Shown here: in pieces, positions 1 through 60,791 of the stretch
How the letters are laid out: each line of letters opens with the position of its first letter
Numbering within the stretch: position 1 is the stretch's first letter
IMG/VR virus record: IMGVR_UViG_3300032038_000015
Span: 67,992 to 131,991 of that record
DNA from: a virus
Lineage: Duplodnaviria > Caudoviricetes
Direction: 5' to 3' (one strand)
Length of the DNA: 64,000 nt
Translations under genes and position numbers: made by a program
Notes under the pieces: generated by a model
Told to the model about the DNA's origin: nothing
The model's database searches: none
What the model saw: only the letters and a program-made list of their open reading frames with translations

Positions 1-541
1 GGAATCGCTGTTCATGCAGCCAAGTATCCTAACGTATTCCGTAGACCATACGGTACTTGAGTCGAGGATAAAGGTTCAACGACTAGATTCATGTCGAGTT
101 ACCGACTTGAGAATAAGGGTGGAAATCCCGAATATCGGTAACAAAAATCGTAGGGCGCAATCGCAAATGGCGTGGGTGAAATCCCCTTAAATCGAAAAAG
201 TATACTCCTCTTCTATTTAATAGAAAGGATGAAGAAATAGTCTAAACGTTATACGAAAGTATAAGAAGTTATTGCTTAATAAAGATGGTGGATTGAATGG
301 AAAATTTTAAGTGTAAATCTATAAGACTATGTAGATATTTATATAGTTTAGGTTTTGATAAACAATCAAAGTTTGATAAAAACAATAATGAATATTGGTT
401 ATTTAAGAAATCTGATGAATTACAAAAAGCATTAGATTTCTTTTTTATTTGATAGTTTGGTAAAGTATAAAGCAATCGAAAAAATAAAATAAATATTTAA
501 GCAATAACTTTCTATGTTTTGCGAGCATAGATAATAAATTG
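1..541 (+). ncRNA. Group I intron 1 in tape-measure gene (5' part lies before the window)
   Basis: Core motifs in order: Q-like ATGCAGCCAAG (~14), R-like GGTTCAACGACTAG (~73), S-like AAGAAATAGTCTA (~232). Then a P9 GAAA hairpin TTATAC-GAAA-GTATAA, a long stem AAGTTATTGCTTAA (266-279) / TTAAGCAATAACTT (497-510), a terminal hairpin and G541, followed by in-frame tape-measure-like codons. Confidence 0.85.
297..452 (+). CDS. Small intron-encoded protein (51 aa, resembles DUF5659-type small phage proteins)
   Basis: MENFKCKSIRLCRYLYSLGFDKQSKFDKNNNEYWLFKKSDELQKALDFFFI, looped out by the 266-279/497-510 stem. Family call is from pattern memory only. Confidence 0.5.
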   Translation: MENFKCKSIRLCRYLYSLGFDKQSKFDKNNNEYWLFKKSDELQKALDFFFI

Positions 542-775
542 AGTTCAGATAAAGAAATGGAAGCCGTAGAATCCTCTCTTTCCTATAAAATCAACGCACT
601 CAAGGAAACTTGGGTTGGTTGTGTACAGGATATGATAGATCGAGGAGGCTTGGGTACAATTGTAACTGGTCTTACAAAGGTTTCAGAAGGAATCACTTTT
701 GTAATTGATAAATTGGGTATTCTTGGATCTATTGGATTAGGAGCAGGGATATTTGCAGGAATTAAAAATGTCGGT
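542..775 (+). CDS. Tape measure protein, internal exon (78 codons, SSDKEM...GIKNVG)
   Basis: Tape-measure-like amphipathic and Gly-rich hydrophobic sequence bounded by predicted splice sites. Joins in frame to 1799 (KNVG|IFKT). Confidence 0.8.
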
Positions 776-1247
776 AGGGATAAAATGTATTCCCTTAGTT
801 TTTGAATATGCCGACAACATGCATAATTTACTCTGGATACAGAGGTTTAAAGTATGTTATCCGTGAGATACACGGTGATAAATAAATAATTGGAACAATA
901 ATCGGGAACTGCGTACAACGGTCTGGTAATGCAGACGTATCACCACTCTCCTATTATGGCGACATAATTAGGTTCGTAAAAGCGTGACGCTCAAGGAATC
1001 CGATGGGACAGATCTCTCTGAGATAAGCCCTCACTGTAGCGACAACTTCCACATCAAGTTATATGCAACGATGCTTGATGAATATGCGCTCGATACTACC
1101 TGACACAACAGGACAATCTGTGATGGATTGTAAAATGCAGAAACTTATCTTCTGTTGTTTGAACATATCGTTCCTATGTGTATTGATAAGATGGAACAAA
1201 ACCAAGAAATCTCGATTTTCTGTCGAATAAACAGAGAATAATAAAAT

Positions 1248-1271
1248 AGAGAGTAGAATACTCTACTCTCT
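1248..1271 (-). terminator. Intrinsic terminator for the antisense peptide gene
   Basis: Perfect 10-bp stem AGAGAGTAGA/TCTACTCTCT followed by a T-rich tail on the - strand. Confidence 0.65.
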
Positions 1272-1310
1272 TATATATGAAAATGATATAATATTCCCTC
1301 ACTAGACTCA

Positions 1311-1394
1311 CTACATAAATTTGAGAACAATAACGAAAATTGTGACTGCAATCACAAATCCGCTAGTACCATTAAACTTAATAGTAAACTTCAT
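1311..1394 (-). CDS. 27-aa hydrophobic peptide (type I toxin-like), antisense within intron 2
   Basis: MKFTIKFNGTSGFVIAVTIFVIVLKFM with strong RBS AGGAGGG, an upstream promoter and a downstream terminator. Confidence 0.6.
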   Translation of the reverse strand: MKFTIKFNGTSGFVIAVTIFVIVLKFM

Positions 1395-1529
1395 AAAAAT
1401 CCCTCCTAACATACATTACATATATAAGGAGAAGTAAAGCTTTGTTCTTAAGCCTCAGTAAAGACAGCCGTGTAGATATTGTCTAGCTCCACATATCGCA
1501 CTGTTTTCAGTGCATCCACCTCAATGAAT

Positions 1530-1557
1530 ATTATATCACGAGTAAAGTTTCTGTAAA
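1530..1557 (-). promoter_or_regulatory. Sigma-A-type promoter driving the peptide transcript
   Basis: TTTACA-N16-TATAAT with an extended -10 (TGaTATAAT) on the - strand. Confidence 0.6.
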
Positions 1558-1619
1558 GTCTAAACGTTTGTTTTACTTTATGGAGAATAATAAAATAGAG
1601 GACAGTCGTGATGACACTA

Positions 1620-1665
1620 AAATAGCCACGCAAGCCCACTCCTTTAGGGGTGGGATGGATAGCAC
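1620..1665 (+). mobile_element. Solo IS200/IS605-family end remnant
   Basis: AATAGCCACGCAAGCCCACTCCTTTAGGGGTGGG has the same layout (AATAG..CGCAA-hairpin with CTTTAG loop) as the left end of the TnpB element at 28136-28185. Confidence 0.55.
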
Positions 1666-1672
1666 ATTTATT

Positions 1673-1723
1673 TTATTTTATATTATATATCCTACCACAA
1701 TTCGGACATTTATATGATACCAT
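1673..1723 (-). pseudogene. Truncated zinc-ribbon gene stub (MVSYKCPNCGRIYNIK)
   Basis: RBS AAAGGAGG and a TGaTATAAT promoter overlapping the 3' splice site. The ORF stops next to the IS end. Confidence 0.45.
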
Positions 1724-1798
1724 TTTGTATGCCTCCTTTTATATAAATCTACAATTACATTATTATTGTGTATCCACAACACATTATATCATAGTATG

Positions 1799-4700
1799 AT
1801 ATTCAAAACAATAACAGATGAATTAGGAAATACAAAATTATCAATCAATAACAGATTTAAAGGATTATTTAGCGGAGATTTTTTTAAGAAAAAAAGTATA
1901 TTAAGCGATGACGATATTTCTGCGATACAAGCGTATAATGCAGAAATAAACAGGGGGGTTACATCTCAAACTGCATTTTATAGAACAATGCAAAATGCTT
2001 CTGTAGAAGCACAAAATATGGCGGCATCTGCCAATGGAATGGTTGTTAATTTAGAACAAATTCCAAAAGTTTCTAAAGCGGGACAAGTAGCACTTAGAGG
2101 TCTTGCTATGGCTGGCAATATAGTTGCTGAAATTCTAGTAGGATTTGTAATATCTAAAGCTGTTGAAGGATTGGATAACTATATTCATCGAGTAGAAAAT
2201 GCCAAAAATGCTCTTGATGAATTTAATTCTTCGGTAAAAGAACAACAGAAAGATATTTCGTCACAGGAGTCATGGATTTCTGAAAATGGAAAACAATTTG
2301 AGGAATTATCAAAAGGTGTAGACAAATATGGTCATAATATATCATTGACATCTGACGAGTTTTCGGAATATAAAAATCTAACAAGTCAAATTGCTGAAAT
2401 GTTCCCTACTATGATTACTGGATATAATGAACAAGGCAGGGCAATATTAAAAAATAAAGGTAGTATTGAAGAACTTACAAAAGCATATCAAGAAAATCAA
2501 GATGCTTATTATGCTAATATCCGTTCTAAATCTACTAAAACTTTTGAGGATTATAAGACAGAAACTAAAGGTGATGTTAAGAAGAAAAATACTATTGAAG
2601 AGTTAATGAGTGGGAATTTATCTTCCAGGTCAATTAGGAACATACTTGGCAAAGAGGAAGGACAACTCATAGACATTGATAACAACAAAGGTATATCTTC
2701 TGCTGAAATACAAAATGCTTTAGGTAAAGACTTATACAATAAACTTTATGAAGAATTGAAGAAAATGCCAATAGGTAAATTTGATGCTTCATTTGAAGAT
2801 TTATCACCAGAACTCCAACAAAAAATCAAAGATATATATTCAAAATTAAATGATACAATAGATACAGAATCGGAAAAAGTGCGTCCTATTCTACAAGCAT
2901 ATTTACAAGGTGATACATCTGGATATGATGAATTAGACGCTGAAGCCCAAACTGCTGTCCAATCATTCATTCAAAACGTAGATAATTCTTTCTTCGAGAA
3001 TTTTAAAACTGATAACGACATGGAAACATGGATACGCCAGAATGTCGTTGAGCCTTTAAAAAATGGTGTAAATAGTGATGAATTAGCTGTAAAAATTCAA
3101 ACACTATTCTCTCTCGATCAAAAGGATTATAAAAGTTATCAGGATTATGTAAATGCTGTATTAGCTATTATAAATTCTTTGAGTAAGATGAAGGATAAAA
3201 ATGGCAATGTAATCTATAACGATAAACAAATAAATACGATGAAAACACAATTTGGCGTTGGCGATGTAGATTCGGATGGTAATGTATCTGGAAATAAATA
3301 TATAAGTTCCGTACAGGATAAGTTTAAAAATGTAAAAGGTGCAAAAGATTATATTACAGGATTAAATAAAGAAGAATTAGACACAGTTATGCACTATAAG
3401 CTTGAACCAGATAAAGATACATCTGTAAAAGATTTAAAAGATTTCATTAAAAACGAATTACAGCCAGAGGCAAATAAAAAAGAGGAGAAAGTAAAATTCT
3501 CTGTAGCATTTAATGATGGTGACTTTAAAGATGTAAAAGAAAAGCTTCTTGAACTTGCTAAGGCAGGACAACTAACACCGTATACAATATCTTCTACAAA
3601 AGAATATAATGCTTTATTAGAAGATACTGGATTATCTGCTGAAAAGGCATATAAAAAGATAATGAAAATTGCACAATCAGATATGAGTGAAGCTGATTGG
3701 AAAACTACACTTACAAATGCACGTTCTCAAATTGCTGAAATTAAAAATCTAAAAAAGGAATTAAAAAAGAACGGTGAGAGTTCTGATTTTATGGATACTA
3801 TTCTTGAAAAATTCCCACAGTTAATTGGTTATCTTGGTGATCAAAAGGGAATGCAAGAACAGTTAAATGAATTACAAAAGGAACAAGAAGATGTTGCCAA
3901 CAATGCATATATGCATATGGTTGAAAATAGTGAATCTTATTATTCGACATTAAAACGGAAAGAAGCAGAAAGATTAAAAACAACAAGCAATACAATAAAC
4001 AAAATAGTTAATGGTAACGCTGGTCTTGTGAAAGCTTTAGGTGGTTACTATAAAGTCGATTTAAGCAACTACGCTTCAATTGCTAAGGCGAAAGCTACAT
4101 TAGAAAAGAATTTAATAACAAATCTTGCTAGTGCGTGGAGCAAATTTTACAAAGTACAGGTAAATGCACAAACTGGATTAGCAGAAGTCCATAACGATAG
4201 CAAAACTGTCCCAAGTGAATATTTAGAAAAAGCCAACGGGGATTATGGTAAAGCTGTCAGTATGATGGTAAAGGAACAAAATAAACAAAAGAACTCTGCT
4301 TTGAAAGCAGCGAAAGCATACAATGAAGCGATAAAGGGTTTTAACTCAATTATAAAGAATCCAGGTGTATCTACAAATGTTAGCAGTAGTGGAGGAAATA
4401 ATAAATCTAAGAAAGCAAAAGCTACCTATCAAAAATTCTCTCAAACAATCGACTGGTGCGCTCAAACATTAAAGAAACTGTCTGCACAGATAGACAATGT
4501 ACAAGCAAAATTAAATAACACTTCTGCCCTATCGAAGCAGATTTCTTATTATAAAAAACTTGTAAAATCTCAAAACGAACTTGCTCAAAGTTATGAAAAA
4601 ACAGAAAATAAATACAACAAAGTGTATAAAAATGCTTTGAAAAAGTTGTCAAAATCAGACCAGAAAAAAGTTAGAGATGGTTCTTATACAATTGAACATT

Positions 4701-7369
4701 TTAAAGGTAAGGCTAAATCTGGTAAGAAATCTGGTGCTGAAAAAAGATACAATAATATTCAAAAAGCTTTGACCGCAAGGGATAATTATTTAGAAGCATC
4801 TACAAGCAGCGAGAATGAAAAGCAAAAGTTGGCTGAATATAGAGAGTCTTTAGCTTCTCTCAGATGGGAAAATGTAACTACAAAGGTTGAAAAGTTAAAT
4901 AATCAAATTAGCATTTTAGATACTCGTATGTCTAATGTAAGTGGATATGTTGCAAAAAATAAGGTGTTAAATGAACAATTATCATTGCAGAAAAAGATTG
5001 TGGATAAACAACAAGAAGCATATAAAGCAAATCAAAAGGATGCTAATTCTTATTATAAGAAAATTTCTGCCAAAAATAAAAAGAATAAAAATTCTGATGG
5101 CACAATTAAGACAACTGGTGTTACAAACAAAAAGCAATTATCTTATATTAAGACATATAACGCTTATTTAAAACAACAGAAAACTAATCTTGTTGAATTA
5201 AAACAGGCGCAAGAGGATTATTATAATACTATTATTAACGCCAAACAAACCGCTGCGGAAAATATTAAAACAGATTATGATAACAGAATATCTTTGGTTG
5301 ATGCGAAACGACAGGAATTAGAAAGTAAAGCATCATTAGCTGAGGCAAATGGACAAGTTGTTTCAGGCTCATATTATAAGTTAATTGCCAATAATTCTAA
5401 TCAGAAGTTGAAAATATTAAATGCCGAAAAAGATAAGCTTGAAGCACAAATGCAGGGAGTTAGAAAATATTCTGATTTATGGTACACTTTACAGGCGAAT
5501 ATTATTTCTGTAGATCAGTCAATTGCAGATGAAACTAAAAATGCTGTTGATAATATCAATAAGCAAGCAGAAGCATTGAAAAATTTGGCTGATGCAAAAA
5601 ATGATTATCTGAATTCAACATACGACACTTTGGATTGGATAAATAGTTTTGCCGATGAAGATGATTACTATGATGACGATGGTAATTATACGGATAAGGG
5701 TTATGCTGTAATGCATAATAAGCTTGCTCAAATTGAGATAAAGAAACAAGAAAGTGAAAATTATGAGAAATCCATAAGTGATTTAGATAAATTATACTAT
5801 TCAAAAAATAGTAAATTATCTGAAGCAGAATGGTTAAAACAGCGTAATGAATTAAATAAGAGTTATCAGCAGACACAAACTGATATTTACAATCAGGAAA
5901 AAGAATTAGCTGATATTAGAAATAAACAACTTGAACAACAGTCTGATAAGCTTAAAGACATCATAGACTTGAAGAAAAAGAGTTTGGATGCTGATAAATC
6001 TGAATATGACTATCAAAAGAGTGTTGCTGAAAAGACAAAGAATATTGCCAACTTGCAAAAACAACTTGCTATGTTAGAAGGAAACAATAGTGAGGAAGCT
6101 ATGGCTGAACGTCAGAAATTACAAAAAGAATTATCTGATGCAAAGGATGATTTAAAGGATACTCAATATGATAAATATCTAGACCGACTTGAAGATGCTT
6201 TTTCTGATTTAGAAGACAGATTCGATAAGCTTATTGAAGAAATGAAAAAGGAAGATGTGTCAACTACTACTGAAAATATTAAGACAGATGTTGAGGATAA
6301 TAATTCTAGTCGTGCTGAAAGTGGTAATAAGGAAATATTAGGTGAGAACGGATTACAGGTATTTGACAAGACAGCCAATTCTCTTATTACAGCAGGAACA
6401 AACATTGAGACAAAGGTAGATGATGTTAATACAAAATTAGATAAAATTGTAGAAGCTGTAATCAAAGATAGTAAAGAGGATGTTGGAAACGGCAACGGTA
6501 CTGTAAAAACTACAACTGATTTAGATAAAGTTCTTGGTAAATATGATGCGAAAAACAAATCACAAGACACAAAAGGTAAAAGTTCTATTACTAAATATTT
6601 AGCGAGCCAAGGTTATAAAACAAAGAGTTATGAAGGAATGTTGGATTTAGTTAATGGTATTCTAAATTCTGATTATGTTAGTGGTATGAATGGCGATGAT
6701 CGTACTGCACTGAGCAAAATTACAACAAAAGACCAACTTGACGGAAATAAGGATAAGAATGCTACTGCAAACAAAGACCTGATTACAAAATCCTTAAAAT
6801 ATGTTAAAGCAAATGAATTCATATCTAAAAACGCTATTGTTGGTAAGAAAAAGAGAGATGAATATAGTAAGGCAAACAGACACATATATGATAAGACTGG
6901 TGGTAAGATATTAAGTGAGAAGAATTTAAAGAAGCTTGCAGGTATTTTAAATGTATCTTATGATTCCAAGAAAATATATGATGCTTTGAAAGCTTGTGGA
7001 TACTCTCAAGGTGGTATTGTAGGAAAGGCTATTCGTGTAAATGGAGACGATGGTATAGCAACTCTTAAAACGGGTGAAGCTGTATTGACTCCTGCACAAA
7101 CAGATGCTTTAGTCGCATTGAGAAAGAATTTAGTACCATTAAATAATTTCATGAGTGCAATTAAAACAAATGTTCCAAATATACAAAGAGCTACTACTGC
7201 TACTACCACTATTGGTGACGTTAGTTTTGAGTTTAACTTGCCTAATGTTGTGGATAGTGAAACTCTTATTAAAACAATTCAAAGGGACACGAGAGTGCAG
7301 AAAACATTGCAAAATGCTACCGTAGGTCAGTTGAATGGTTCTAGTAGATTTAAAGTAAACAGATTATAA
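1799..7369 (+). CDS. Tape measure protein, 3' exon
   Basis: Very long coiled-coil ORF directly upstream of Dit and tail tip genes. No RBS at its nominal start. C-terminal GGIV...GEAVLT motif typical of tape measure ends. Confidence 0.88.
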   Translation: MFKTITDELGNTKLSINNRFKGLFSGDFFKKKSILSDDDISAIQAYNAEINRGVTSQTAFYRTMQNASVEAQNMAASANGMVVNLEQIPKVSKAGQVALRGLAMAGNIVAEILVGFVISKAVEGLDNYIHRVENAKNALDEFNSSVKEQQKDISSQESWISENGKQFEELSKGVDKYGHNISLTSDEFSEYKNLTSQIAEMFPTMITGYNEQGRAILKNKGSIEELTKAYQENQDAYYANIRSKSTKTFEDYKTETKGDVKKKNTIEELMSGNLSSRSIRNILGKEEGQLIDIDNNKGISSAEIQNALGKDLYNKLYEELKKMPIGKFDASFEDLSPELQQKIKDIYSKLNDTIDTESEKVRPILQAYLQGDTSGYDELDAEAQTAVQSFIQNVDNSFFENFKTDNDMETWIRQNVVEPLKNGVNSDELAVKIQTLFSLDQKDYKSYQDYVNAVLAIINSLSKMKDKNGNVIYNDKQINTMKTQFGVGDVDSDGNVSGNKYISSVQDKFKNVKGAKDYITGLNKEELDTVMHYKLEPDKDTSVKDLKDFIKNELQPEANKKEEKVKFSVAFNDGDFKDVKEKLLELAKAGQLTPYTISSTKEYNALLEDTGLSAEKAYKKIMKIAQSDMSEADWKTTLTNARSQIAEIKNLKKELKKNGESSDFMDTILEKFPQLIGYLGDQKGMQEQLNELQKEQEDVANNAYMHMVENSESYYSTLKRKEAERLKTTSNTINKIVNGNAGLVKALGGYYKVDLSNYASIAKAKATLEKNLITNLASAWSKFYKVQVNAQTGLAEVHNDSKTVPSEYLEKANGDYGKAVSMMVKEQNKQKNSALKAAKAYNEAIKGFNSIIKNPGVSTNVSSSGGNNKSKKAKATYQKFSQTIDWCAQTLKKLSAQIDNVQAKLNNTSALSKQISYYKKLVKSQNELAQSYEKTENKYNKVYKNALKKLSKSDQKKVRDGSYTIEHFKGKAKSGKKSGAEKRYNNIQKALTARDNYLEASTSSENEKQKLAEYRESLASLRWENVTTKVEKLNNQISILDTRMSNVSGYVAKNKVLNEQLSLQKKIVDKQQEAYKANQKDANSYYKKISAKNKKNKNSDGTIKTTGVTNKKQLSYIKTYNAYLKQQKTNLVELKQAQEDYYNTIINAKQTAAENIKTDYDNRISLVDAKRQELESKASLAEANGQVVSGSYYKLIANNSNQKLKILNAEKDKLEAQMQGVRKYSDLWYTLQANIISVDQSIADETKNAVDNINKQAEALKNLADAKNDYLNSTYDTLDWINSFADEDDYYDDDGNYTDKGYAVMHNKLAQIEIKKQESENYEKSISDLDKLYYSKNSKLSEAEWLKQRNELNKSYQQTQTDIYNQEKELADIRNKQLEQQSDKLKDIIDLKKKSLDADKSEYDYQKSVAEKTKNIANLQKQLAMLEGNNSEEAMAERQKLQKELSDAKDDLKDTQYDKYLDRLEDAFSDLEDRFDKLIEEMKKEDVSTTTENIKTDVEDNNSSRAESGNKEILGENGLQVFDKTANSLITAGTNIETKVDDVNTKLDKIVEAVIKDSKEDVGNGNGTVKTTTDLDKVLGKYDAKNKSQDTKGKSSITKYLASQGYKTKSYEGMLDLVNGILNSDYVSGMNGDDRTALSKITTKDQLDGNKDKNATANKDLITKSLKYVKANEFISKNAIVGKKKRDEYSKANRHIYDKTGGKILSEKNLKKLAGILNVSYDSKKIYDALKACGYSQGGIVGKAIRVNGDDGIATLKTGEAVLTPAQTDALVALRKNLVPLNNFMSAIKTNVPNIQRATTATTTIGDVSFEFNLPNVVDSETLIKTIQRDTRVQKTLQNATVGQLNGSSRFKVNRL

Positions 7370-15129: not shown

Positions 15130-15357
15130 TTATTTATTGAGATTATTGAATATATTTACTGTATTTGCTTTATTCTTTTCGAACACATGAATATATCTCT
15201 TCCATGTTACGTCTGAAGATGAATGCCCCAAAAGTTTAGAGACAGTGTATAAATTTTGCTCATCTTCGTTCACTAACACAGATGCAAATGAATGTCTTAA
15301 TTCGTGTGATGTTACATGTGGTAATCCTGCTCTTCTGCACATGTAATCAAGAGTTGC
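15130..15357 (-). pseudogene. Tyrosine integrase, C-terminal fragment only
   Basis: HELRHSFAS, LLGHSS and catalytic Tyr (RYIH). No N-terminal portion and no RBS. Confidence 0.85.
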
Positions 15358-15363
15358 AAATGG

Positions 15364-17803: not shown

Positions 17804-20800
17804 TTAATCCTCCATATATTCCATGTCGTCCAAATGATAAACACGATCATGAATATCACCATACCTACCCTGATTACCACCATTTTTTGCAGTACCAATA
17901 TAACCACAAACTCTAAATGCTATATCCATTGTTGTATTGTCAGTATTCCCACAGCTAGGACATTCCCATTTAAGTCTATTGTTTTCATCTGATACAAGAG
18001 GAATATCACCATCAAAGCCACATTTTTCACAATAACAACTCTTTGTGTTAATCTCTGCATACATGATGTTGTTATAAATAAATTTAATAACTTCTAATAT
18101 AGCAGGAATATTATGACTCATACTTGGTACTTCGATATATGAAATTGCTCCTCCTGGACTTAATTTCTGGAATTTTGATTCGATTCTTAACTTTTCAAAT
18201 GCCGTGATATGTTCAAAGACAGGAATATGGTAAGAATTAGTAATATAATTTCTATCAAAACCATCTAATTTTTCAAAGATGTCGCTACCGAAACGAGATT
18301 TTAGACACTTTGCAAATTTGTAAGTTGTGGACTCTAATGGTGTTCCGTACAAACTATAGTCAATGTTTTCAGCTTGTTTCCACTGATTACATTTATCATT
18401 TAACGCCTGCATAACCTTTAATCCAAATTCTTCGCCAATCCCTTCATCGGAATGAGAATGACCAGTCATAAATTTTACACATTCATATAAACCAGCATAA
18501 CCAAGCGAGATTGTAGAATAACCATCATAAAGAAGTCTGTCAATTTTTTCATGTTTCTTTAATCTTGCATATGCTCCATGTTGCCATAAAATAGGTGCTA
18601 CATCAGAAGATGTACCAAGCAATCTCTCGTGTCTTGCCCTAAGTGCTTTATGACACAACTCAGTTCTTTCCTTAAAGATTTCCCAAAACTTATCAAAATC
18701 TCCGTCAGATGAGAAAGCAATATCTGGAAGTGAAATCGTTACAACACCCTGATTGAATCGTCCATAATATTTATGTTTATTCGGATCAAAGTTCTTTGCA
18801 TTTGCAATATTTCCCACTTTATCCGTAAATCTATCTACAGTAAGGAAACTTCGGCAATTGTGGCTATAAATACCACTAACTTCAAAATGTTCACTAGATG
18901 TTGTCACATCATAACTATACATTTCTTTGTGAATCGGATTAATCTTGATAACCTCTGATTCAATAGCATATCCTGATACATTTGATTCAATATAGTTATC
19001 ACATTTCTTTTTGCATACAATGTAATTAACTAATTCATCAGTTGGGTAAAATTCAACCCTATATCTAATCAATTCTGGATTTTTCTTTGTGTAATGATTA
19101 TGATAAATTTTAGCTGGGATTCCAATAGATTGTGCTAACGCCATTTGCTGAAGTGCCAATTCTTTATTAGTAGAACCGATTTGAACAGTAGAAAAGTTAT
19201 TTTCATTTTGATGTGAATTGATATATCCGTCAGCATCAATCATTCCTGCAAAAAAGGCAAGCTTCGCTTCATAATTCCATGAGAATACTTCATTCGGAAT
19301 TTGTCTATTTACTTTATTGATACCACCAAATTTTGATGTAAAATAATTTGTCACATATTGAATTCCACCGTTATTATCTGAAATTGCACATAAATCTTTG
19401 TATGTTCCTTTTTTACCACGTTCTTGTAGAACTGTTTTAACATTCAGTCCGAAATACTTAGTAAATGTATTGCTAAATTTTTCTTCAATTTCATCTTCTC
19501 CTGTTGCAGCAATAGACGCAAATACATGATTATTTTGATAACATCCATCACATAACATAAATCCCAATAGCCATGCTTTATCAGCATTGAACAGAATTGA
19601 TTCTTCCTTATATTGATTTGAGTTGATTAAGATTTTGTCTCCAAGTTTCAATTCTGATGCGTGTACATTTCTGCCATCTCTTAATGTTAATGGATGATCC
19701 GTTGTACATAATAATCTTCTACCATTAGAAAAGTCCACATCCAACCATTCACTTGATACATTACGAATAATTCTTTTTGTATCAACAAATCCTTTTTTTG
19801 TATCATAAATCGTTACTTCTGATAAATCCATATATAAATTAGGATTATCTTCGGAATACTGGTGTTTGATTTCAAATGAATCAGACAACCTCCTCCACAT
19901 TCTTTCGAATGATTCTACATATAAATTATTCTTAATCTTATATGTAATAAGTTCTTTTCCGTCAACGCATCCCATACATGTATAAACATCACCCTTTAAT
20001 TCAAGCATCATTTTTTCGGATATGTAATCAGGGACAAGTCTCTTAGATGAACATTCAGCAGCTAATTCTGTAAGATACCAATATTTAGAATCTTCTGTAA
20101 TGTTATCTTCTTCTAATACATAAATAAGCTTTGGAAATGCAGGAGCAATATAAACACCTTTTTCATTCTTCACCCCTTGAATTCTCTGGTGAAGCATTTC
20201 TTCAATTAACATTGCCAAGTCAGCTTTCTCACATTCATTTTTTGCTTCGTTTAAATACATAAAAATTGTGATAAAAGGTGCTTGTCCATTTGTTGTCATA
20301 AGCGTGACCAACTGATACTGGATTGTTTGAACACCTTTTTCTATTTCTTCTTTTAATCGTTTATTGGTGATATGAACAACTTCTGCGAGTTCTTCATTAT
20401 ACTCACTAATCAATCCATTATTAAATAACTCTTCTGTTACTTTTTTTCTAATTGATTTTCTACTTACATCAACAAATGGGGCTAAGTGTGCTAGAGAAAT
20501 ACTCTGCCCACCATACTGATTACTGGCAATCTGAGCAATAGCCTGCGTTTCGATATTGCAAGCAGTTGAAAAACTATGTGGCGTTTCAATAAGAGTTTCG
20601 CTAATTACAGTATTATTTTGAAGCATATCTTCAGAATTGACCAACCCACAGTTATGCATGTGCTGCAAGAAATAATCAGCATCATGAAAATGAATTAGTC
20701 CATCATTATGAGCCTGAATAATTTCAGGAGATAATAAATATCTTTTTGTTATATCTGTGCTAACAGATCCAGCAATATAATCTCTTTTGGTAGGATTTAA

Positions 20801-21166
20801 TACTGGATTTTTATTTGCATTTTCATCCTTCCAATATTCGTCTTTATCTTCTACAAGATCATGGATCTCTATGTCTGTTGTATTCTCGTTATCTCTCTGA
20901 AACTCACGAATACTTCTATACCCCTCGTATGCTTTTGCTGTAAGTCTCTGCTTCTTAGTAATCAATTTATCATAAACCATTGATTCAATATCAGAGATGC
21001 TTACTTCTTCTTTATCCTTACATTCATTTTCGATTTCATCTGCAATGTCTTCAGCAATCTTTGGTTTTACAATACCTGAACCATTTTTCATAGCTTTAAG
21101 AATTGCAGTTGAGATTTTTGATTTGTCAAAATCAACTTCTGAACAATCTCTCTTAATTATCGTCAT
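17804..21166 (-). CDS. nrdD: Class III ribonucleotide reductase with ATP cone and intein
   Basis: IHFHD, QYGGQS, MG|CRSFL, YITNSYH, zinc-finger CxxC pairs and glycyl-radical motif RVCGYIG. Confidence 0.96.
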   Translation of the reverse strand: MTIIKRDCSEVDFDKSKISTAILKAMKNGSGIVKPKIAEDIADEIENECKDKEEVSISDIESMVYDKLITKKQRLTAKAYEGYRSIREFQRDNENTTDIEIHDLVEDKDEYWKDENANKNPVLNPTKRDYIAGSVSTDITKRYLLSPEIIQAHNDGLIHFHDADYFLQHMHNCGLVNSEDMLQNNTVISETLIETPHSFSTACNIETQAIAQIASNQYGGQSISLAHLAPFVDVSRKSIRKKVTEELFNNGLISEYNEELAEVVHITNKRLKEEIEKGVQTIQYQLVTLMTTNGQAPFITIFMYLNEAKNECEKADLAMLIEEMLHQRIQGVKNEKGVYIAPAFPKLIYVLEEDNITEDSKYWYLTELAAECSSKRLVPDYISEKMMLELKGDVYTCMGCVDGKELITYKIKNNLYVESFERMWRRLSDSFEIKHQYSEDNPNLYMDLSEVTIYDTKKGFVDTKRIIRNVSSEWLDVDFSNGRRLLCTTDHPLTLRDGRNVHASELKLGDKILINSNQYKEESILFNADKAWLLGFMLCDGCYQNNHVFASIAATGEDEIEEKFSNTFTKYFGLNVKTVLQERGKKGTYKDLCAISDNNGGIQYVTNYFTSKFGGINKVNRQIPNEVFSWNYEAKLAFFAGMIDADGYINSHQNENNFSTVQIGSTNKELALQQMALAQSIGIPAKIYHNHYTKKNPELIRYRVEFYPTDELVNYIVCKKKCDNYIESNVSGYAIESEVIKINPIHKEMYSYDVTTSSEHFEVSGIYSHNCRSFLTVDRFTDKVGNIANAKNFDPNKHKYYGRFNQGVVTISLPDIAFSSDGDFDKFWEIFKERTELCHKALRARHERLLGTSSDVAPILWQHGAYARLKKHEKIDRLLYDGYSTISLGYAGLYECVKFMTGHSHSDEGIGEEFGLKVMQALNDKCNQWKQAENIDYSLYGTPLESTTYKFAKCLKSRFGSDIFEKLDGFDRNYITNSYHIPVFEHITAFEKLRIESKFQKLSPGGAISYIEVPSMSHNIPAILEVIKFIYNNIMYAEINTKSCYCEKCGFDGDIPLVSDENNRLKWECPSCGNTDNTTMDIAFRVCGYIGTAKNGGNQGRYGDIHDRVYHLDDMEYMED
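18857..19969 (-). mobile_element. Intein with LAGLIDADG homing endonuclease (371 aa)
   Basis: Begins CVDG, block B TTDHPL, LGFMLCDG and FAGMIDADG motifs, ends SHN before Cys. Confidence 0.93.
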
Positions 21167-26993: not shown

Positions 26994-28094
26994 TTACAAT
27001 ATTCTTAAACCTTCATTGAGAATATTCTTTGCAGCATTAACATCTCTGTCATGAACAGTACCACATTGAGGACAAATCCATTCTCTTACGGATAAATCCT
27101 TTGTGCCTGAATTAACATAACCACAACAGTTACAAGTCTGAGATGAAGCATAGAATCTATCAACTTTAATATATTGACGATTATTCCATTCTGCTTTATA
27201 ACTTAATTGTCTTGTTAATTCATACCATCCACAATCTGAAATTGCCTTGGCAAGATTATGATTCTTTACCATATTAGATACTGCCAAATCCTCACTTACG
27301 ATTACTTGGTTTTCGCTAATCAACTTATGAGAGATTTTATGTAGATTATCAATTCTGGTATTATGAATCTTTTCATGTATTCTTGCTACTTTTATTCTCT
27401 GTTTATTCCAATTCTTACTACCTTTTACTTTATGAAACAATTTTCGTTGTTCCTTTGCTAATTTATCTTGATATTTCTTGGTAGTATGTATATTGTCAAA
27501 CTTTTCTCCATCAGAGGTGATAAGTAAATCTTTAATGCCTAAATCAATACCAACCATTCTGCCAGTAGATTCCATTGAAATATGTTCTATTTCTACTAAA
27601 ACAGATACAAAATATTTTCCAGATGGAACTTGTGAGATAGTAGCAGATTTAATCTTACCTATGAACTCACGATGTATTTTTGCTTTAACCCATTTGAGTT
27701 TTGGTAATTTAATTTCATTATTCTCAAAAGATATTTCGATGTTTCCATTTGTAAAATTAGTTGAGTATGACTTTTTATTATTATGTTTACTTTTAAATTT
27801 GGGATATCCAGAATGTTCTTTGAAGAACTTCTGATATGCAGAATCCATATTGTAAATTGCATTCGTGAGAGCAAATTTATCTACTTCTTTTAACCATTCG
27901 TACTCCTTTTTGAGAATTTGATTACAATAATTATTACAAGAAGTTTTATTCATAGATTCTTTTTGTGTTTCATACATTTCTTTTCTATGAGATAGCGTTT
28001 GATTATATACAAACCTACAACATCCAAATGTTTTCTGAATTTGTTCTTCTTGCTGTTTATTTGGATATAATCTGTATTTATAGGCTTTTAACAT
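26994..28094 (-). CDS. tnpB: TnpB RNA-guided nuclease
   Basis: KAYKYRLYP HTH, RuvC GIDLG / SEDL / DRDVNAA intact, zinc finger. Confidence 0.95.
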   Translation of the reverse strand: MLKAYKYRLYPNKQQEEQIQKTFGCCRFVYNQTLSHRKEMYETQKESMNKTSCNNYCNQILKKEYEWLKEVDKFALTNAIYNMDSAYQKFFKEHSGYPKFKSKHNNKKSYSTNFTNGNIEISFENNEIKLPKLKWVKAKIHREFIGKIKSATISQVPSGKYFVSVLVEIEHISMESTGRMVGIDLGIKDLLITSDGEKFDNIHTTKKYQDKLAKEQRKLFHKVKGSKNWNKQRIKVARIHEKIHNTRIDNLHKISHKLISENQVIVSEDLAVSNMVKNHNLAKAISDCGWYELTRQLSYKAEWNNRQYIKVDRFYASSQTCNCCGYVNSGTKDLSVREWICPQCGTVHDRDVNAAKNILNEGLRIL

Positions 28095-36067: not shown

Positions 36068-37116
36068 TCTCTTAACTTTCTCCTTTCTGACTCATCATAT
36101 AAAACACGATGCTTGAGAAGGAAGTTATATACTTTATTTGGCATATCAGCAGGACTATCTTTACTACCTTTCTTAATCAAATCCCAACGATCATATATGT
36201 AACTTACTTTTCTAATAGGATAAAATTTATCACATTCCTGTCTAATATGGTTTATATCAATTCCTTCATCTAAAGCCACTACAATTTCTACATTTAAACT
36301 AATCAGTATCCTAACTTGTTCTTCTGTAAGTTCACAATTTCCTATTGCAACAGCCGTACCATCTTTTCGTGAATACCTTTTAAGCACCGATTTCTGCGCT
36401 TCCAAAACGACTGCATAACCAGCCTCTTGAATTGTTTGATAATTCTCATTTAATCCATATACATTCATTCCTTTTGGATATGTTTTGGATAGTTTAAAAA
36501 ATTTAGGAATATCAAACATCTCATAATTCGGTACAGTAGTTCTTCCACTAATACCTATATATTCATTGTCATCCCCATCCCACTTACGTTCAGGAATAAC
36601 AATTCTTTTTCTATCATATGAATATCCAATATTAAATCTTTTACAAGCGAACGGAAGTACACCTTCTCGAATCCACCCAATATAAGGCAAATCAGTATAT
36701 TCTTTCATACATGAATCATCATACACTGGAATATCTTTATCAATTGTGTATCTTTGGCGTTTCACCTTTTTGAAGATTGCCAATGGATCTTTCTTATTAT
36801 CTTTGTTTTCACTCTTACTATATGAATATTTCAAACCTAAAATATTGTGGAGATATTTATTAGCTTTTCCAAAAGATATACCTTTTATTGTCATAACCAA
36901 TGTAAAAATATCTCCACGCTTATTTTCTTCCGAACTTCTAATCGCCACTGATAATGTATCTTTCTTTACACATATAGCAGTTTTATTATTGCCTTGTGGC
37001 AAGGCGGCTCTCCACTCATGAAGATATTCGTGTAGTCCATGACACTCCAACGATAATAAAATCTGTTCTATACAATTATTCTCTATAATGTATTCTTTTA
37101 GTTCATCTGCATTAAT
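36040..37116 (-). CDS. DNA primase (Toprim), probable ATT start
   Basis: GDIFTLV, RIVIP, GISGR, VLEA.KS, ALDEG. Downstream of the helicase. Frame open to ATT 37116 after an RBS. Confidence 0.8.
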   Translation of the reverse strand: MNADELKEYIIENNCIEQILLSLECHGLHEYLHEWRAALPQGNNKTAICVKKDTLSVAIRSSEENKRGDIFTLVMTIKGISFGKANKYLHNILGLKYSYSKSENKDNKKDPLAIFKKVKRQRYTIDKDIPVYDDSCMKEYTDLPYIGWIREGVLPFACKRFNIGYSYDRKRIVIPERKWDGDDNEYIGISGRTTVPNYEMFDIPKFFKLSKTYPKGMNVYGLNENYQTIQEAGYAVVLEAQKSVLKRYSRKDGTAVAIGNCELTEEQVRILISLNVEIVVALDEGIDINHIRQECDKFYPIRKVSYIYDRWDLIKKGSKDSPADMPNKVYNFLLKHRVLYDESERRKLRDWQERQVKN

Positions 37117-37142
37117 ACACGCTCACCGCCTCCATCACAAAT

Positions 37143-38651
37143 TTAAAAATCAACTGGGACAGAAGTAAAACCAACTTCTTTCAGTATGTTTCTACTCATA
37201 TCATGCTCACATACAATCTGTATACTACTTGCAGCACCCTCACGGTTTTTACAAATGAATATAAGCTGATAATGTTTGTCTTTGTCCAGTTTGACAGGTA
37301 TTTTTGATTTATTGTTTTTTCCATCAAATCTATATACCTTTAAAGCATTTTTCTCACCTGTGTACTCATCTTCAAATACATCTCTCAGCATTAAACATGT
37401 ACTTGCAGGGTCGACAATACTTTTTGCCATACCAATATTATCTTGACTATAAAATCTCTGACGTGCTGAAGATTTTGCCAACTGGAATGTAATAGTTACA
37501 TGAATTTCCAAGCCACCCTCTTCTTTACACTTCACAGTATCGTAAATATCAACCATATTCTGTTGCATATCTAACCACATCTTGTCGGAACGACTACCTG
37601 AATCGGCTTTATATGTATCAAGAATGAAATACTTAACACCAAGGTTTGCATATTTCTTTAGAACTTTTATGAATTTCTGAGTTTTGTATCTTTTGAATGG
37701 AACTATTATAAGCATGTTATTCTCAGCCTTTTCAGTAATCCAATCTGCACACTTTCTTAACAAATCTTTAACTTCGCTAGAATATTTACCATCTCTAACA
37801 ACGAATTTTTGCAAATCTTGTTTGTAAATATTATTCGCAGTCCACACCAACAATTCTCTCTGCCATTTCTTTTTCCCCTCTTCGTTGACACAAATAACAA
37901 GTCTTTCTTCATATTTTATTGTGCTTGGAATCAACATTGATCTTGTTAGTGTAGTTTTGCCCATATTAGATAATCCACCAATCAATGTAATATTACCAGG
38001 TAACTGACCACCAGTTTCTTTATTAAGAATATCCATATTATTGTATGGAAGTCCAACTGCTGCACCAGCATCTAATTCATCAATTAAATCATAAATGCCA
38101 TCAGCTAATGAATATGACTGTACATCATCATCTGCATTGATGAAAATATGATTTAACATTGCTTCATATTCTTCATATATTTCATCTAAAGACATATCAC
38201 AGAATTCATTGATACGATTATTTACAGGGAATCCATTTTTTAACATCTCCAAAACTGTTTTCCACTTGTATAGCTCTTTGACATACCCATCCATATTGTT
38301 GATGTTTACATACTCTTTGGCTTTATCAATCGTTTCATATCCACCATAATCCTCATATTCCTTTTTGAGTTTTTGATGCTTTTCAAGATATAAACCAACA
38401 GTCATATCATCCAATACTGATTTCTTTTCTACTACAATAATGTCATTTGCAATCTGCCAATAGACTCGCCATGTATTTTCACTAAAATCTTCAAGCTGCA
38501 ATGTATAATCAAAAATTAATTCTGGTTGTTTATATAAAATAGCAACTATATTAGCTTCTGCTATTATTTTGTATTCTCGAATCTGTTTTGCACATTTTAA
38601 TACTTCTTCCTGATAAGGAGTTAATTTTTTATTCTCTTTTTTCTCAGCCAA
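37143..38651 (-). CDS. DnaB-like replicative helicase
   Basis: Walker A GLSNMGKTT, ILDT, TFQL, KNREG. Confidence 0.85.
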   Translation of the reverse strand: MAEKKENKKLTPYQEEVLKCAKQIREYKIIAEANIVAILYKQPELIFDYTLQLEDFSENTWRVYWQIANDIIVVEKKSVLDDMTVGLYLEKHQKLKKEYEDYGGYETIDKAKEYVNINNMDGYVKELYKWKTVLEMLKNGFPVNNRINEFCDMSLDEIYEEYEAMLNHIFINADDDVQSYSLADGIYDLIDELDAGAAVGLPYNNMDILNKETGGQLPGNITLIGGLSNMGKTTLTRSMLIPSTIKYEERLVICVNEEGKKKWQRELLVWTANNIYKQDLQKFVVRDGKYSSEVKDLLRKCADWITEKAENNMLIIVPFKRYKTQKFIKVLKKYANLGVKYFILDTYKADSGSRSDKMWLDMQQNMVDIYDTVKCKEEGGLEIHVTITFQLAKSSARQRFYSQDNIGMAKSIVDPASTCLMLRDVFEDEYTGEKNALKVYRFDGKNNKSKIPVKLDKDKHYQLIFICKNREGAASSIQIVCEHDMSRNILKEVGFTSVPVDF

Positions 38652-53272: not shown

Positions 53273-54661
53273 TTAGTCGACTTTATTATTCTCTGAACCA
53301 TTCTTGTTCTGTTCATACTTTTCAGAGATATCATAATATTTTCTTGCTTCCTGTTTACTCTTTTCAGTAACTTGTCCACTTTCCATCCAAAGAGTTGACT
53401 TTGCAATATTTCTAGCAGCATTAAAATCAGCATTAAAACCAGTTTTCTCATATTTCTTATGACTATCACAATTCTCATTCGCACATTCAAATACTGACTG
53501 TGATTTTCTCTGACCAAATTCCCAATTACCACATACACTGCAAATCTGTGATGTATAACAAGGATTGATTTTTCTTACTTCTATTCCGTATTTAGCTGCT
53601 TTATATGTAATATAATCTTGAAGCTTATAATAACTCCAATTTCTCAGGATAAAATCGCTTGTATCATATCCTGTTAAATTCTCAATATTTATGTATTTAG
53701 CATTATGCTTTAAAGCAAAATCAACAACTCTCTTACTTATCATGTGACAATATGTTTCAACAAAATGTGCTTCTGCTTTCTGTAATCTTTCCAATGCTTT
53801 CAATTTCTTTGCTCTACCATGACCGCCAGAAGTATTTCTCAATGACTTCTGTAATCTTCTTCTCTGAGCTTGCATTTTAGTTCTTATTCTTAGAAAGTCA
53901 TCTGCATTTCCAATTGCCAATCTCTCGTAAAGATTATTATTTAAAGCACACATCGCAGGAACAGCAATACCTAAATCAACACCTACTACTGTATTTTCGT
54001 CTAACTCTCTAAGTTGTTTTGGAATAGATATTGAAAGATTCAAAATGATTGATTTACCATCAATTTCAATACTGCTTCCTTGCACTTTATAATTCTCTTC
54101 TAATATATTTTGTACAACAGATCTTAACTCTAATGACCTATGCGGATTACCAAATACAACCTTGAATACAATTTTATTAACCCACTTGACATATACAGCT
54201 AAATCAGAATCGTTAATTTTATCTAAGAAATCCTGATAAGTTTCATATTCGTGATAAAAAGTTAAGTTTCTACCTCTTGTAATAAGTGGATTGGTTCTCT
54301 TATAATTAGTTACTGTTCGTTCACCTTTAGCCAATCCATTCTTTAAAGCTGTGCTGAAATCCTGCTTGACTTTTTGCGTAACAGCTGATGGTGTATCTAC
54401 GCCTGTTGCAAAATCAATATCTTTTAATATAATATTAGAATTTGTCATTATTTCTTTCTGTCTTGCCTTAAATTCTTCATTCTTAATATCACGATTATAT
54501 TTGTAATATTCACTCATAAGCTGTCCCATAAGTAAATTACACGCTTGATACTGAGCATACTGACCATTTCTAATAAAGTCATATACTCTATTGATTTCCT
54601 CCTTATCTCCTACTGGAAATAATTTAATTTTTCTACAAATTGTCATTCTATCGTTTCCCAT
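53273..54661 (-). CDS. cas12f: Cas12f-like (type V-F / TnpB-derived) compact RNA-guided nuclease, 462 aa
   Basis: RuvC I VGVDLG, bridge helix, GGHGR.KKL motif, RuvC II NIENL, NWSYY.LQ..I.YKA, TSQ.CS.CG zinc finger, RuvC III NADFNAARNIA. Adjacent mini-arrays. Confidence 0.8.
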   Translation of the reverse strand: MGNDRMTICRKIKLFPVGDKEEINRVYDFIRNGQYAQYQACNLLMGQLMSEYYKYNRDIKNEEFKARQKEIMTNSNIILKDIDFATGVDTPSAVTQKVKQDFSTALKNGLAKGERTVTNYKRTNPLITRGRNLTFYHEYETYQDFLDKINDSDLAVYVKWVNKIVFKVVFGNPHRSLELRSVVQNILEENYKVQGSSIEIDGKSIILNLSISIPKQLRELDENTVVGVDLGIAVPAMCALNNNLYERLAIGNADDFLRIRTKMQAQRRRLQKSLRNTSGGHGRAKKLKALERLQKAEAHFVETYCHMISKRVVDFALKHNAKYINIENLTGYDTSDFILRNWSYYKLQDYITYKAAKYGIEVRKINPCYTSQICSVCGNWEFGQRKSQSVFECANENCDSHKKYEKTGFNADFNAARNIAKSTLWMESGQVTEKSKQEARKYYDISEKYEQNKNGSENNKVD

Positions 54662-59184: not shown

Positions 59185-59805
59185 TTAATTTATCCATTTT
59201 ATCAAAGTGTTTCCCATGTATCCTTTTTCAAAGCAAAATCACGCATAAGCAACTGCACTACCACCACCTGCTCTCATTTCATCAAAAAGAGCGTTCTTCG
59301 CACATAAGATACGACTGCTTGAAACATAAACACATTTTGGTGGGTACTTTTTAAATAATTCCTTACGAGCTTTTCCTTCAAGAAACTGAACTTTAAGAAA
59401 CATAAATACTCTGCAACCATCAGGAATTAATGTCATTGCATGTTCAATAAATTCTTTTGCATATTTGTATGGGGGATTTGTTAAGATATCGCCATTCCAA
59501 GGCTGATTATATGTAAGAAAATCAATTCCACCTTCACCATAACCTCTGTCGATCAGGTCGGTGGATCGAACTTCATAACCGAAACTCTTTAATCTTTCAG
59601 ATAAATGTCCTTCGCCACAGGAACATTCCCAGATAGGTTTGTCAAATGTAACACCACCATCTTTTAATAAGACATCAATTGCAATAGGATCTGTCGCATA
59701 ATAATCCTCATTCTGTCTCTCCTTGTCGGTGTGATTACTTGCACCCAAAGTCTTAAAAATACTATTCTTATTACCTGTCCAATCTTTTTCTGTATTATTT
59801 TTCAA
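59185..59805 (-). pseudogene. DNA amino-methyltransferase with in-frame TGA at a Trp position
   Basis: DYYAT, WECSCGEG, TNPPY. AYA*FCFEKGY...KWIN aligns with paralog MFVWVIWNK...SWI (23604). Confidence 0.8.
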
Positions 59806-59894
59806 ATTTGTTCACCAATAGTAGCTGCGCAGCTTTACTCACATGTGAACGTTTTTCCTTTCCTTGTTTTGTAATTACATTATTATATTCTCTG

Positions 59895-60185
59895 TTATTT
59901 ATAAATCTTTGGTAGTTTTTTAAAAGCAACTACATCATCTCTGAAGCAAACATTGTCCTTATAAATCCTTTTATCATTTAAATGAGTTTCATCGTTATAT
60001 CCATATACTTCATATGTATTGTAAACATCTAATCGTCTATTATCTTTCCATCTTAGTGTATTTTCGTCCCAAAATAAATCCATAACATATGCTTGTCCTG
60101 GTTCTTCACCATATCTAATTGAGCATATATACCAACCACGCTTTTTAGGTATGTGTTTAGGATATGCTTTCCATCTATTGAACAT
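59895..60185 (-). CDS. Hypothetical protein
   Basis: ORF with RBS GGAGG before ATG 60185. Confidence 0.65.
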   Translation of the reverse strand: MFNRWKAYPKHIPKKRGWYICSIRYGEEPGQAYVMDLFWDENTLRWKDNRRLDVYNTYEVYGYNDETHLNDKRIYKDNVCFRDDVVAFKKLPKIYK

Positions 60186-60218
60186 ATTTTTACCTCCATA
60201 GGAAACCAAAATTTCTTG

Positions 60219-60791
60219 CTAGTTTTTATCCAAAATTCCTACTTGATTACCCCAAGTATCCCATCCATCTCGTTCAATACGAGCAAACATTTCTAGTTTC
60301 TTAGCATTTGGAAACATATTTTCTAACATTTCATAAGCACACACTGGCTTTTTGCTATGTTTGGCAGATGGTTCTCTCAAAACTGTCGTATATTTTCCTC
60401 TCATATCTTCACATGGCATTAAAATATTACCCTTTTTATAGAACCATAAAAGATATTCATGTGAAAATCTCACGGTAAAAGCAGGTGCAACACCATTCTC
60501 TTTATCCCAAATGAATCTTGCGTGAAGTTCATATCCTAGTTCCTTCATCATCTGCTCTGTTTCATGAAGATATTTATCTATCGTCCACATAAATACATTG
60601 TGTTTTTCATTACACAAACTCAATGCTTGTCTATGTATTTCCTTAATTTCGTCCATAGTACATGTCTGATAATCAAGCTCTTTTCCTTGTTTTGGTCTAC
60701 ATTTACGTTTATTACCTTTTGTCTGTTTCCACGCAGGATCTGTGTAAATCAAATCATATTTATTATCTGTATTGTAAATATCAATCTGCAT
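60219..60791 (-). CDS. MT-A70-family adenine methyltransferase
   Basis: YDLIYTDPAW, FMWT, WDK, HEYLL, HSKKP, LEMFAR..GWD.WGNQ. Confidence 0.88.
   Translation of the reverse strand: MQIDIYNTDNKYDLIYTDPAWKQTKGNKRKCRPKQGKELDYQTCTMDEIKEIHRQALSLCNEKHNVFMWTIDKYLHETEQMMKELGYELHARFIWDKENGVAPAFTVRFSHEYLLWFYKKGNILMPCEDMRGKYTTVLREPSAKHSKKPVCAYEMLENMFPNAKKLEMFARIERDGWDTWGNQVGILDKN

Follow-up and report, generated by a model that had tools for sequence, protein, structure and literature searches.

Phage group I introns are usually viewed as small selfish elements with at most one endonuclease gene. In phage T4 nrdD (sunY) and other phage introns bearing an open reading frame (ORF), the coding sequence follows the core, so that the 3′ splice site is distant from the core and is reached via P9.0 and P10. 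We describe here an interruption of a phage tape-measure protein (TMP) gene at positions 776–1798 of a 64,000-nt stretch of viral DNA (hereafter the window), which we interpret as a self-splicing group I intron in phase 0 (intron 2), with a probability of about 0.86 on the sequence comparisons presented below. Unlike introns of the T4 nrdD (sunY) type, which hold one sense-strand endonuclease ORF, the family of intron 2 holds up to approximately eight ORFs on both strands, and none of those in the window is an endonuclease. The window makes up the right-hand half of an IMG/VR record of 131,991 nt, and all coordinates are window positions unless prefixed with L002 or G000.

Two described systems are closest to this locus. 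The prophage TMP genes of the Bacillus cereus group hold the group I introns TMP-IVS1, IVS2 and IVS3 (Tourasse and Kolsto 2008, PMC2504315). These share with intron 2 and its relatives the phage TMP host, several insertion sites per TMP gene and the occurrence of different introns at one site with a near-identical P1/guide; some copies are without a complete endonuclease gene, and intron-less alleles exist. The TMP-IVS introns, however, are small and of subgroups IA1/IA2, whereas intron 2 lacks P7.1/P7.2, contains a P5a/P5b extension, is missed by Rfam and belongs to a family carrying 1–6 kb of multi-gene cargo on both strands. The IStrons CdISt1, BcISt1 and CboIStron (PMC4227781, PMC10690162) are alike in their 5′ core, kilobases of coding cargo and far 3′ splice site, and in that splicing renders the insertion harmless to the interrupted gene. 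IStrons, however, carry a transposon (tnpA/tnpB plus an omega RNA) and are scattered over short target motifs, whereas the intron 2 family occupies one homing site, encodes no transposase and carries accessory genes that in many cases are antisense and driven by promoters of their own. Related introns have been noted to occur with “uncharacterized accessory” genes (PMC10690162), and our literature searches found no paper on phage group I introns with multi-gene antisense cargo.

The TMP gene is split into three exons totalling approximately 2,980 codons, and intron 2 separates exons 2 and 3 (Table 1). Both exon ends can pair with a 16-nt internal guide (800–815) that lies 25 nt inside the intron. 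The 3′ part of the guide, GCCGAC, pairs with the 5′ exon GUCGGU to form P1, with U775·G810 at the splice site, and its 5′ part, UUUUGAAUAU, is the exact complement of the start of exon 3, AUAUUCAAAA, forming a 10-bp P10 that adjoins P1. Complementarity of this guide to the ligated junction is far beyond chance (estimated at ~1000 positions × 4^-16). The joined exons read KNVG/IFKT between complete codons (the slash marks the junction), with a predicted ligated RNA of AAAAAUGUCGGU/AUAUUCAAAACA. A degenerate DNA pattern of the ligated junction was used to find intron-less TMP alleles. In three distant TMP genes (L032, L035 and L039, ~28% identical), the exon 1 and exon 2 homologs run uninterrupted through KNVGIFKT, so the predicted ligation product equals a natural uninterrupted allele. 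Almost all close relatives are interrupted directly after KNVG, and exon 3 resumes 3.4–5.6 kb on at IF(K/T)T.

An IMG/VR search with exon 2 yielded 27 related loci. An alignment was made of 11 related IMG/VR introns of five sequence types, covering the first 450 nt of each, and a structure was built by hand on the window sequence. Compensatory changes in the relatives show that P1, P10 and P9.0 are each maintained. In P1, whose cells are 98.5% paired across the alignment, L018 and L019 combine the exon sequence GUUGGU with the guide GCCAAC. In P10, exon 3 of L013 has UUU as its first Phe codon, and the L013 guide carries an A where others have G (AAA). In P9.0, the pair adjoining omega-G is G-C in L022 (end AGUACG with G in J7/9) and A-U in L008 (AGUAUG with A). 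All 10 introns with a known 3′ end terminate in G, as AGUAUG or AGUACG, and the relatives possess a P10 of 7–11 bp and a P9.0 of 5–10 bp (6 bp in the window). Variants of the 5′ splice site were also observed: type B introns (L006–L008 and L020–L023, ~6229–6310) have U-A and a bulged U in P1, and L011 and L024 (~6229–6300) have an exon C opposite a guide A, a possible C·A wobble replacing the U·G.

The ribozyme spans approximately 425 nt (776–1200) and comprises P1, P2, P2.1, P3, P4–P6 with the P5a/P5b extension, P7, P3′, P8, P7′, P9.0 and P9–P9.3, including the P3/P7 pseudoknot; P3 and P7 cross in every group I intron. Across the alignment, 85.8% of 1,056 pair cells are standard-paired, versus 31–45% when the 3′ partners are slid by 1–3 columns, and changes on both sides of a pair were found in 57 of 102 pairs, versus 10–21 when slid. 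These pairing and covariation values were reached by none of 500 shuffles. RNAalifold, which was blind to the hand-built model, recovered P1, P2, P2a, P2.1, P5b, P6, P7, P8 and P9.2, with 36 of 65 pairs compensatory. The helices of the P2 region are 90–100% paired, most of their pairs being doubly changed; P3 shows double changes in four of its five pairs, P6 is 93–100% paired, and the L5b loop is a GNRA tetraloop in every sequence, in five variants. In the window copy, every modelled pair is a standard pair. The P7.1/P7.2 elements of subgroup IA, the usual subgroup of phage introns, are absent, a single hairpin (1052–1080) lying between P3′ (1047–1051) and J8/7. The layout, with P2/P2.1, the P5a/P5b extension and no P7.1/P7.2, probably resembles that of IB/IC1 introns. 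A first-pass annotation of the window, made from its sequence alone, had listed P1 with a U·G pair, a 10-bp P10, P3, P4, P8 and P9.0 as paired and had predicted in-frame splicing at KNVG/IFKT. The compensatory changes confirm these helices at the same coordinates, and the reading phase together with the three uninterrupted alleles bears out the junction.

P7 is the best-supported helix of the model, with 100% pairing in the 11 sequences. It consists of C1034-G1092, a bulged U1035, G1036-C1091, a second bulge at U1037 and the pairs 1038–1041/1087–1090, of which A1038-U1090 is the first. The covariation check proposed earlier for this helix was run, and three of its six pairs proved compensatory: GCG/CGC in type A is replaced by AUG/CAU in types B, D and E, and the outer C-G becomes G-C in L011. 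The pair G1036-C1091 is invariant in 11 of 11 sequences, with U or A as the neighbouring bulge. The extra bulged U1037, between this G-C and the A-U pair, is found in 9 of the 11 and is lacking in L011 and its near-twin L024. GACUA/UAGUC is the P7 sequence of one subgroup only. The first-pass annotation had contrasted P7 with this sequence; its pairing and its extra bulged U were right, but the term “non-canonical” was an overstatement, as the frame of closing C-G, bulge, G-C and A-U is kept. The natural variants of P1 (U·G, U-A and C·A) and of P7, with or without the extra bulge, represent a ready series for ribozyme work.

A covariance model (R1) built on 1003–1165 identified the element in 20 loci/contigs, always at this TMP site, with scores of 98–179 bits; no further ribozyme copies were detected with it in the phage genome. 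Intron type and host gene are uncoupled. L005, L006–L008 and L011 possess exon 1 sequences that are 96% identical, yet they contain three different intron types, and the window and L009 share a core that is 96.7% identical while exon 1 is only 62% identical. The introns of L005 and L009, whose cores are 94–97% identical to that of the window, encode endonucleases, namely a PHROG HNH/homing endonuclease with DUF4379 and a DUF559/Vsr-like protein. Together, this uncoupling and these endonucleases fit the pattern of homing. In the window, no ORF of intron 2 exceeds 63 amino acids (aa), and neither the endonucleases nor the other cargo proteins of the relatives have left a remnant there, in agreement with the initial statement that its 3′ ~600 nt hold no homing endonuclease. 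The window intron is probably immobile, unless the endonuclease of a related intron acts in trans.

Contigs from three bovine-gut metatranscriptome runs (two studies) fall mainly on the intron core, at 784–1029 and 800–1112, and their word depth exceeds that of the few exon contigs. This higher depth hints at a stable intron RNA, with strain mixing as an alternative explanation.

Downstream of the core, the stretch that leads up to the 3′ splice site differs greatly among family members. The intron measures 1,023 nt in the window and 3,429, 3,483, 3,892, 4,150, 4,557, 4,809, 5,130, 5,136 and 5,633 nt in relatives. In the relatives, this stretch encodes a 332-aa GmrSD_N/DUF262 protein (PADLOC NsnA match, 1e-31), DUF3800 proteins, a 72–85 aa coiled-coil ORF, endonucleases, a terminal zinc-ribbon gene and minus-strand ORFs of 64 aa and 110–117 aa, and cargo modules are common to otherwise different intron backbones. 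The idea of swappable cargo, advanced in the first-pass annotation, agrees with these data: content varies greatly (1.0 kb in the window versus 3.4–5.6 kb in relatives), and invariance across homologs was not found. That annotation further viewed the intron as a landing pad that may be selectively neutral, with accessory genes that might be expressed during lysogeny. Variable cargo at the intron tail is supported by these sequence comparisons, and the window represents the smallest and most decayed member of this cargo-carrying intron family.

Two antisense promoter–ribosome-binding site–ORF units and a terminator had been noted in the window. Both units and the terminator are present, but the second unit is truncated and retains only the first 16 codons of its gene. 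The complete unit is a cassette on the minus strand, with the promoter TTTACA-16-TATAAT (1557 to 1530; 11 of 12 positions, plus an extended TG), a leader of ~130 nt, an AGGAGG ribosome-binding site, a 27-aa hydrophobic peptide (MKFTIKFNGTSGFVIAVTIFVIVLKFM) and a 10-bp terminator (minus strand, 1271 to 1248). In the predicted fold of the leader, the Shine-Dalgarno (SD) sequence pairs with an upstream CUCCUUA (z = -3.75). Copies of the cassette occur in L005, L007 and L008 (~72% DNA identity), in which the peptide keeps a short basic N-terminus and one hydrophobic helix and a leader hairpin covaries. An 18-nt direct repeat bounds the cassette; L013, L021 and L023 have one repeat copy and no cassette. 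The cassette is 93–95% identical in introns of other core types (L011, L022 and L024) and therefore moves between intron backbones. A “junction motif” had been placed at 1206 without being defined, and the only repeat near it is this 18-nt direct repeat. An end of an insertion sequence (IS) was also suggested in the intron, and this candidate was rejected: it has no similarity to the IS607/TnpB elements of the genome, and no Rfam RNA was found there.

The predicted anatomy of the cassette is that of a type I toxin gene, and we refer to it as toxin-like. In Firmicutes, type I toxin-antitoxin loci such as Fst/par and TxpA/RatA likewise combine a strong promoter, a long structured leader that hides the SD, a small peptide with a basic N-terminus and hydrophobic helix, and a strong terminator. 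Unlike these loci, the window cassette shows no dedicated antisense RNA gene and its peptide no Pfam family: a Pfam search of the 27-aa peptide returned no match, and no separate antitoxin promoter was found for the cassette, the only antisense transcript being the TMP pre-mRNA/intron itself.

The second unit belongs to a zinc-ribbon gene, with a promoter that extends across the 3′ splice site. In 9 of 9 relatives with a known 3′ end, a minus-strand ORF of 118–190 aa with zinc ribbons at both ends has an equivalent start. In addition, one RNA-run contig is identical to the window over 1682–1753 and then follows a different continuation of the zinc-ribbon frame. Given the full-length genes of the relatives and this continuing frame, the window holds the stump of a zinc-ribbon gene; its full-length version was not found in IMG/VR with exact and degenerate DNA patterns. 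The window shows decayed cargo and not a working pair of antisense genes.

In the proposed mechanism, the guide would pair with both exon ends, as P1 and P10, and so set the choice of splice sites, and the 6-bp P9.0 would place omega-G 1798 at the G-binding pair G1036-C1091 of P7, though 600 nt separate the core from the 3′ splice site. Two guanosine-initiated transesterifications, as are usual for such introns, would then follow. The tail downstream of the core is probably a tolerated loop that collects independently promoted genes in this phage lineage, and in the window it has decayed to one complete antisense peptide cassette and the zinc-ribbon stump. P9.0 and P10, both backed by covariation, lead to the distant 3′ splice site, and a further pairing may contribute: the motif UCAAAC, present 20–35 nt before the splice site in 9 of 9 relatives, can pair with an invariant GUUUGA of the core (1157–1162). 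This pairing would close the cargo into the loop of a P9-type helix, as the first-pass annotation had proposed. Because neither side of the pairing varies and A and T abound in the sequence, per-sequence shuffles do not lend it significance. In the window, UCAAAC is degraded to ACAAC and ~5 bp remain. A further complementarity was considered, between the P2a loop GGAUAC (835–840) and GUAUCC (1770–1775), extending to 8 nt with the flanks; GUAUCC lies 23 nt upstream of the 3′ splice site. It was rejected as a family feature, being present in the window and absent from every relative; GUAUCC is either a chance occurrence or a window-specific replacement for the lost UCAAAC.

Several observations weigh against a self-splicing intron in the window. 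Neither RF00028 nor any other Rfam family matched 776–1798, whether in the window or in a search of the 1.1-kb stretch alone at E <= 10, and no Rfam group I match was found at the intron site in 11 related loci. The RF00028 model is weak on these phage introns, since even intron 1, which separates exons 1 and 2 and is of conventional group I type, scores only 36.5 bits (E 2.8e-6), under the gathering score of 50. The extra bulged U1037, between the G-binding pair and the next pair, may affect the predicted G site, and the degraded UCAAAC may make capture of the 3′ splice site weaker in the window. The exon 2–exon 3 joint was not seen in contigs of public RNA runs, which cannot show absence; this is neutral on splicing. 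Intron 2 could be an intron by descent that now splices poorly; the copy would then be decaying, and the phage defective or of low fitness, with low or absent TMP. The rearranged tail, the zinc-ribbon gene cut after ~14 codons, the lost closure motif and the missing endonuclease would suit such a copy, as would a record that is an incomplete metagenome assembly (~79% complete). We nevertheless regard this as unlikely: the window retains P1, P10, P9.0, omega-G and the full set of core helices, with every modelled pair standard and a core near-identical to those of L005 and L009. Moreover, near-identical sequence occurs in 17 public runs from 13 studies (labelled, where labels are given, as bovine-gut or gut metagenome), so the phage circulates.

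The interruption could also be read without any splicing, as two TMP polypeptides (539–805 and from the ATG at 1796) with an island of accessory genes between them and the RNA helices used otherwise. The unspliced products would end in KNVGRDKMYSLSF and start with MIFKT. In 8 of 10 genomes the junction coincides exactly with an in-frame ATG, and the genes of the region have their own promoters. That ATG (1796–1798), however, has no Shine-Dalgarno sequence and is ACG in L022 and L025, the guide is complementary to, and covaries with, both exon ends, and uninterrupted homologs join both parts at exactly the same codon, which makes this reading very improbable. We give still less credence to an IStron-type element, that is, a group I intron combined with IS200/IS605 or IS607, from which the transposase would be gone while an IS end remained. 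The layout of 5′ ribozyme, cargo and distant 3′ splice site is IStron-like (PMC4227781, PMC10690162), and the phage genome does contain an IS607-like element with a RAGATH-18 RNA, plus two TnpB-like genes elsewhere. On the other hand, none of ~20 relatives has tnpA/tnpB in the intron, all copies sit at one homologous site instead of dispersed target motifs, and 776–1798 shows no likeness to the IS elements of the genome and no omega-RNA-type Rfam match. Finally, IStron introns are of subtype IA2 and match Rfam (PMC4227781, PMC10690162), and intron 2 does neither.

Taking 776–1798 as a self-splicing intron, we tentatively suggest, as a rather doubtful extension, that the intron family forms a sheltered accessory-gene island within an essential, homing-protected gene. 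Defence-type genes (NsnA/GmrSD_N-like, DUF3800), zinc-ribbon genes and toxin-like cassettes would be exchanged there and transcribed antisense, before or independently of the late TMP gene, and the pre-mRNA or excised intron, fully complementary to the toxin mRNA, may be the antitoxin. If so, toxin expression would be tied to the late-transcription switch. The intron 2 family stands apart in being missed by a curated RNA library, in its non-IA architecture and in its kilobases of independently promoted, often antisense genes, which include defence and toxin types. Should splicing be confirmed, a gene essential to the virion would double as a protected site for accessory-gene exchange, and its cargo would be overlooked wherever annotation pipelines split the TMP into two genes separated by “hypothetical” ORFs.

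Table 1. Coordinates of the TMP exons, introns, predicted ribozyme elements and antisense units (window numbering unless prefixed).
Feature	Coordinates	Strand	Details
TMP exon 1	L002 8685–11810, upstream of window		1,042 codons; Pfam PhageMin_Tail
Intron 1 (between exons 1 and 2)	L002 11811–12533 = window -181..541		omega-G = base 541; 234 nt upstream of intron 2
TMP exon 2	542–775	+	78 codons, last residues KNVG, final complete GGT codon; preceded by intron 1
Predicted group I intron 2	776–1798	+	1,023 nt, phase 0; 5′ splice site 775/776; omega-G 1798
P1, P1 extension and P10 guide	770–815	+	P1 770–775/810–815; extension hairpin 776–780/791–795; P10 guide part 800–809
P2 region	817–875	+	P2 817–822/852–857; P2a hairpin 831–844, conserved loop GGAUAC; P2.1 861–875
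P3 and P4–P6 domain	891–1051	+	P3 891–895/1047–1051 encloses P4–P6 domain
P4–P6 parts	P4 901–906/999–1004; P5 909–914/987–996; P5a 919–937; P5b 950–972; P6 1005–1030	+	
P7, P8, J8/7	1034–1092	+	P7 encloses P3′ and P8 (1052–1080); J8/7 GAAUAU 1081–1086
P9 region	1093–1200	+	P9.0 5′ strand 1093–1098; P9 1099–1112; P9.1 1113–1131
P9.2 onward		+	P9.2 1138–1154, invariant loop ACUUAUC; conserved GUUUGAAC 1157–1164; P9.3 1170–1197 containing GAUAAG
18-nt direct repeat, left copy	1234–1251		exactly = 1583–1600; on minus strand, T-tract of a terminator
Type-I-toxin-like cassette (predicted)	1238–1557	-	promoter 1557–1530; leader ~1523–1395; 27-aa ORF 1394–1311; terminator 1271–1238
18-nt direct repeat, right copy	1583–1600		exactly = 1234–1251
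Truncated zinc-ribbon gene	1673–1811	-	weak -35 1811–1806 (in exon 3); TG 1791–1790; -10 TATAAT 1788–1783
Truncated zinc-ribbon gene, coding part		-	ribosome-binding site AAAGGAGG 1739–1732; 16-codon ORF 1723–1673 MVSYKCPNCGRIYNIK; read from sequence
P9.0 3′ strand, omega-G, P10 exon strand	1792–1808	+	1792–1797; 1798; 1799–1808
TMP exon 3	1799–7369	+	1,856 codons, first residues IFKT

The boundaries of intron 1 are proven by the many relatives in which exons 1 and 2 are contiguous in one frame, and this intron is missing from most relatives. In blastn/tblastn searches against annotated phage records, only its 3′ part resembled other sequences, namely intergenic/intron DNA of Staphylococcus myophages; the same searches, run with the intron 2 region and with exon 2, returned nothing for intron 2. 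A 51-aa DUF5659 ORF (297–449) was observed in the 3′ part of intron 1. In relatives, further interruptions of TMP exon 1 were identified in L015/L016 (5189–5500), L020/L021 (3736–5488), L022 (3744–5926), L017 (5483–6001), L026 and L029. These range from 0.3 to 2.2 kb, and some contain ORFs of 406–512 aa. A Rfam group I match was absent from those searched (L015, L017, L021, L022 and L026, not L029). In this phage group, the TMP gene appears to be a hotspot for introns.

The phage genome also encodes a DNA polymerase, helicases, a ligase, NrdD, TnpB-like proteins and a tyrosine recombinase. A 345-aa ORF upstream of the window has a Pfam Phage_integrase match (G000 36695–37270), and a 91-aa minus-strand ORF with a Phage_integrase domain (15178–15360) was observed within the window. 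A 1,120-aa ORF (17804–21166, minus strand) matches NrdD-like anaerobic ribonucleotide reductase; its two best stretches span residues 760–1114 only, and the first ~760 residues may be an extension or insertion. Approximately 8 kb upstream of the window, the IS607-like element (L002 3527–5507; G000 59526–61506) comprises a 220-aa serine-recombinase-type TnpA and a 403-aa TnpB-like ORF, and is directly followed by the RAGATH-18 RNA (70.2 bits). The two transposase/TnpB-like ORFs (PHROG 506) lie on the minus strand at 26994–28094 and 53273–54661, within the region of replication genes.

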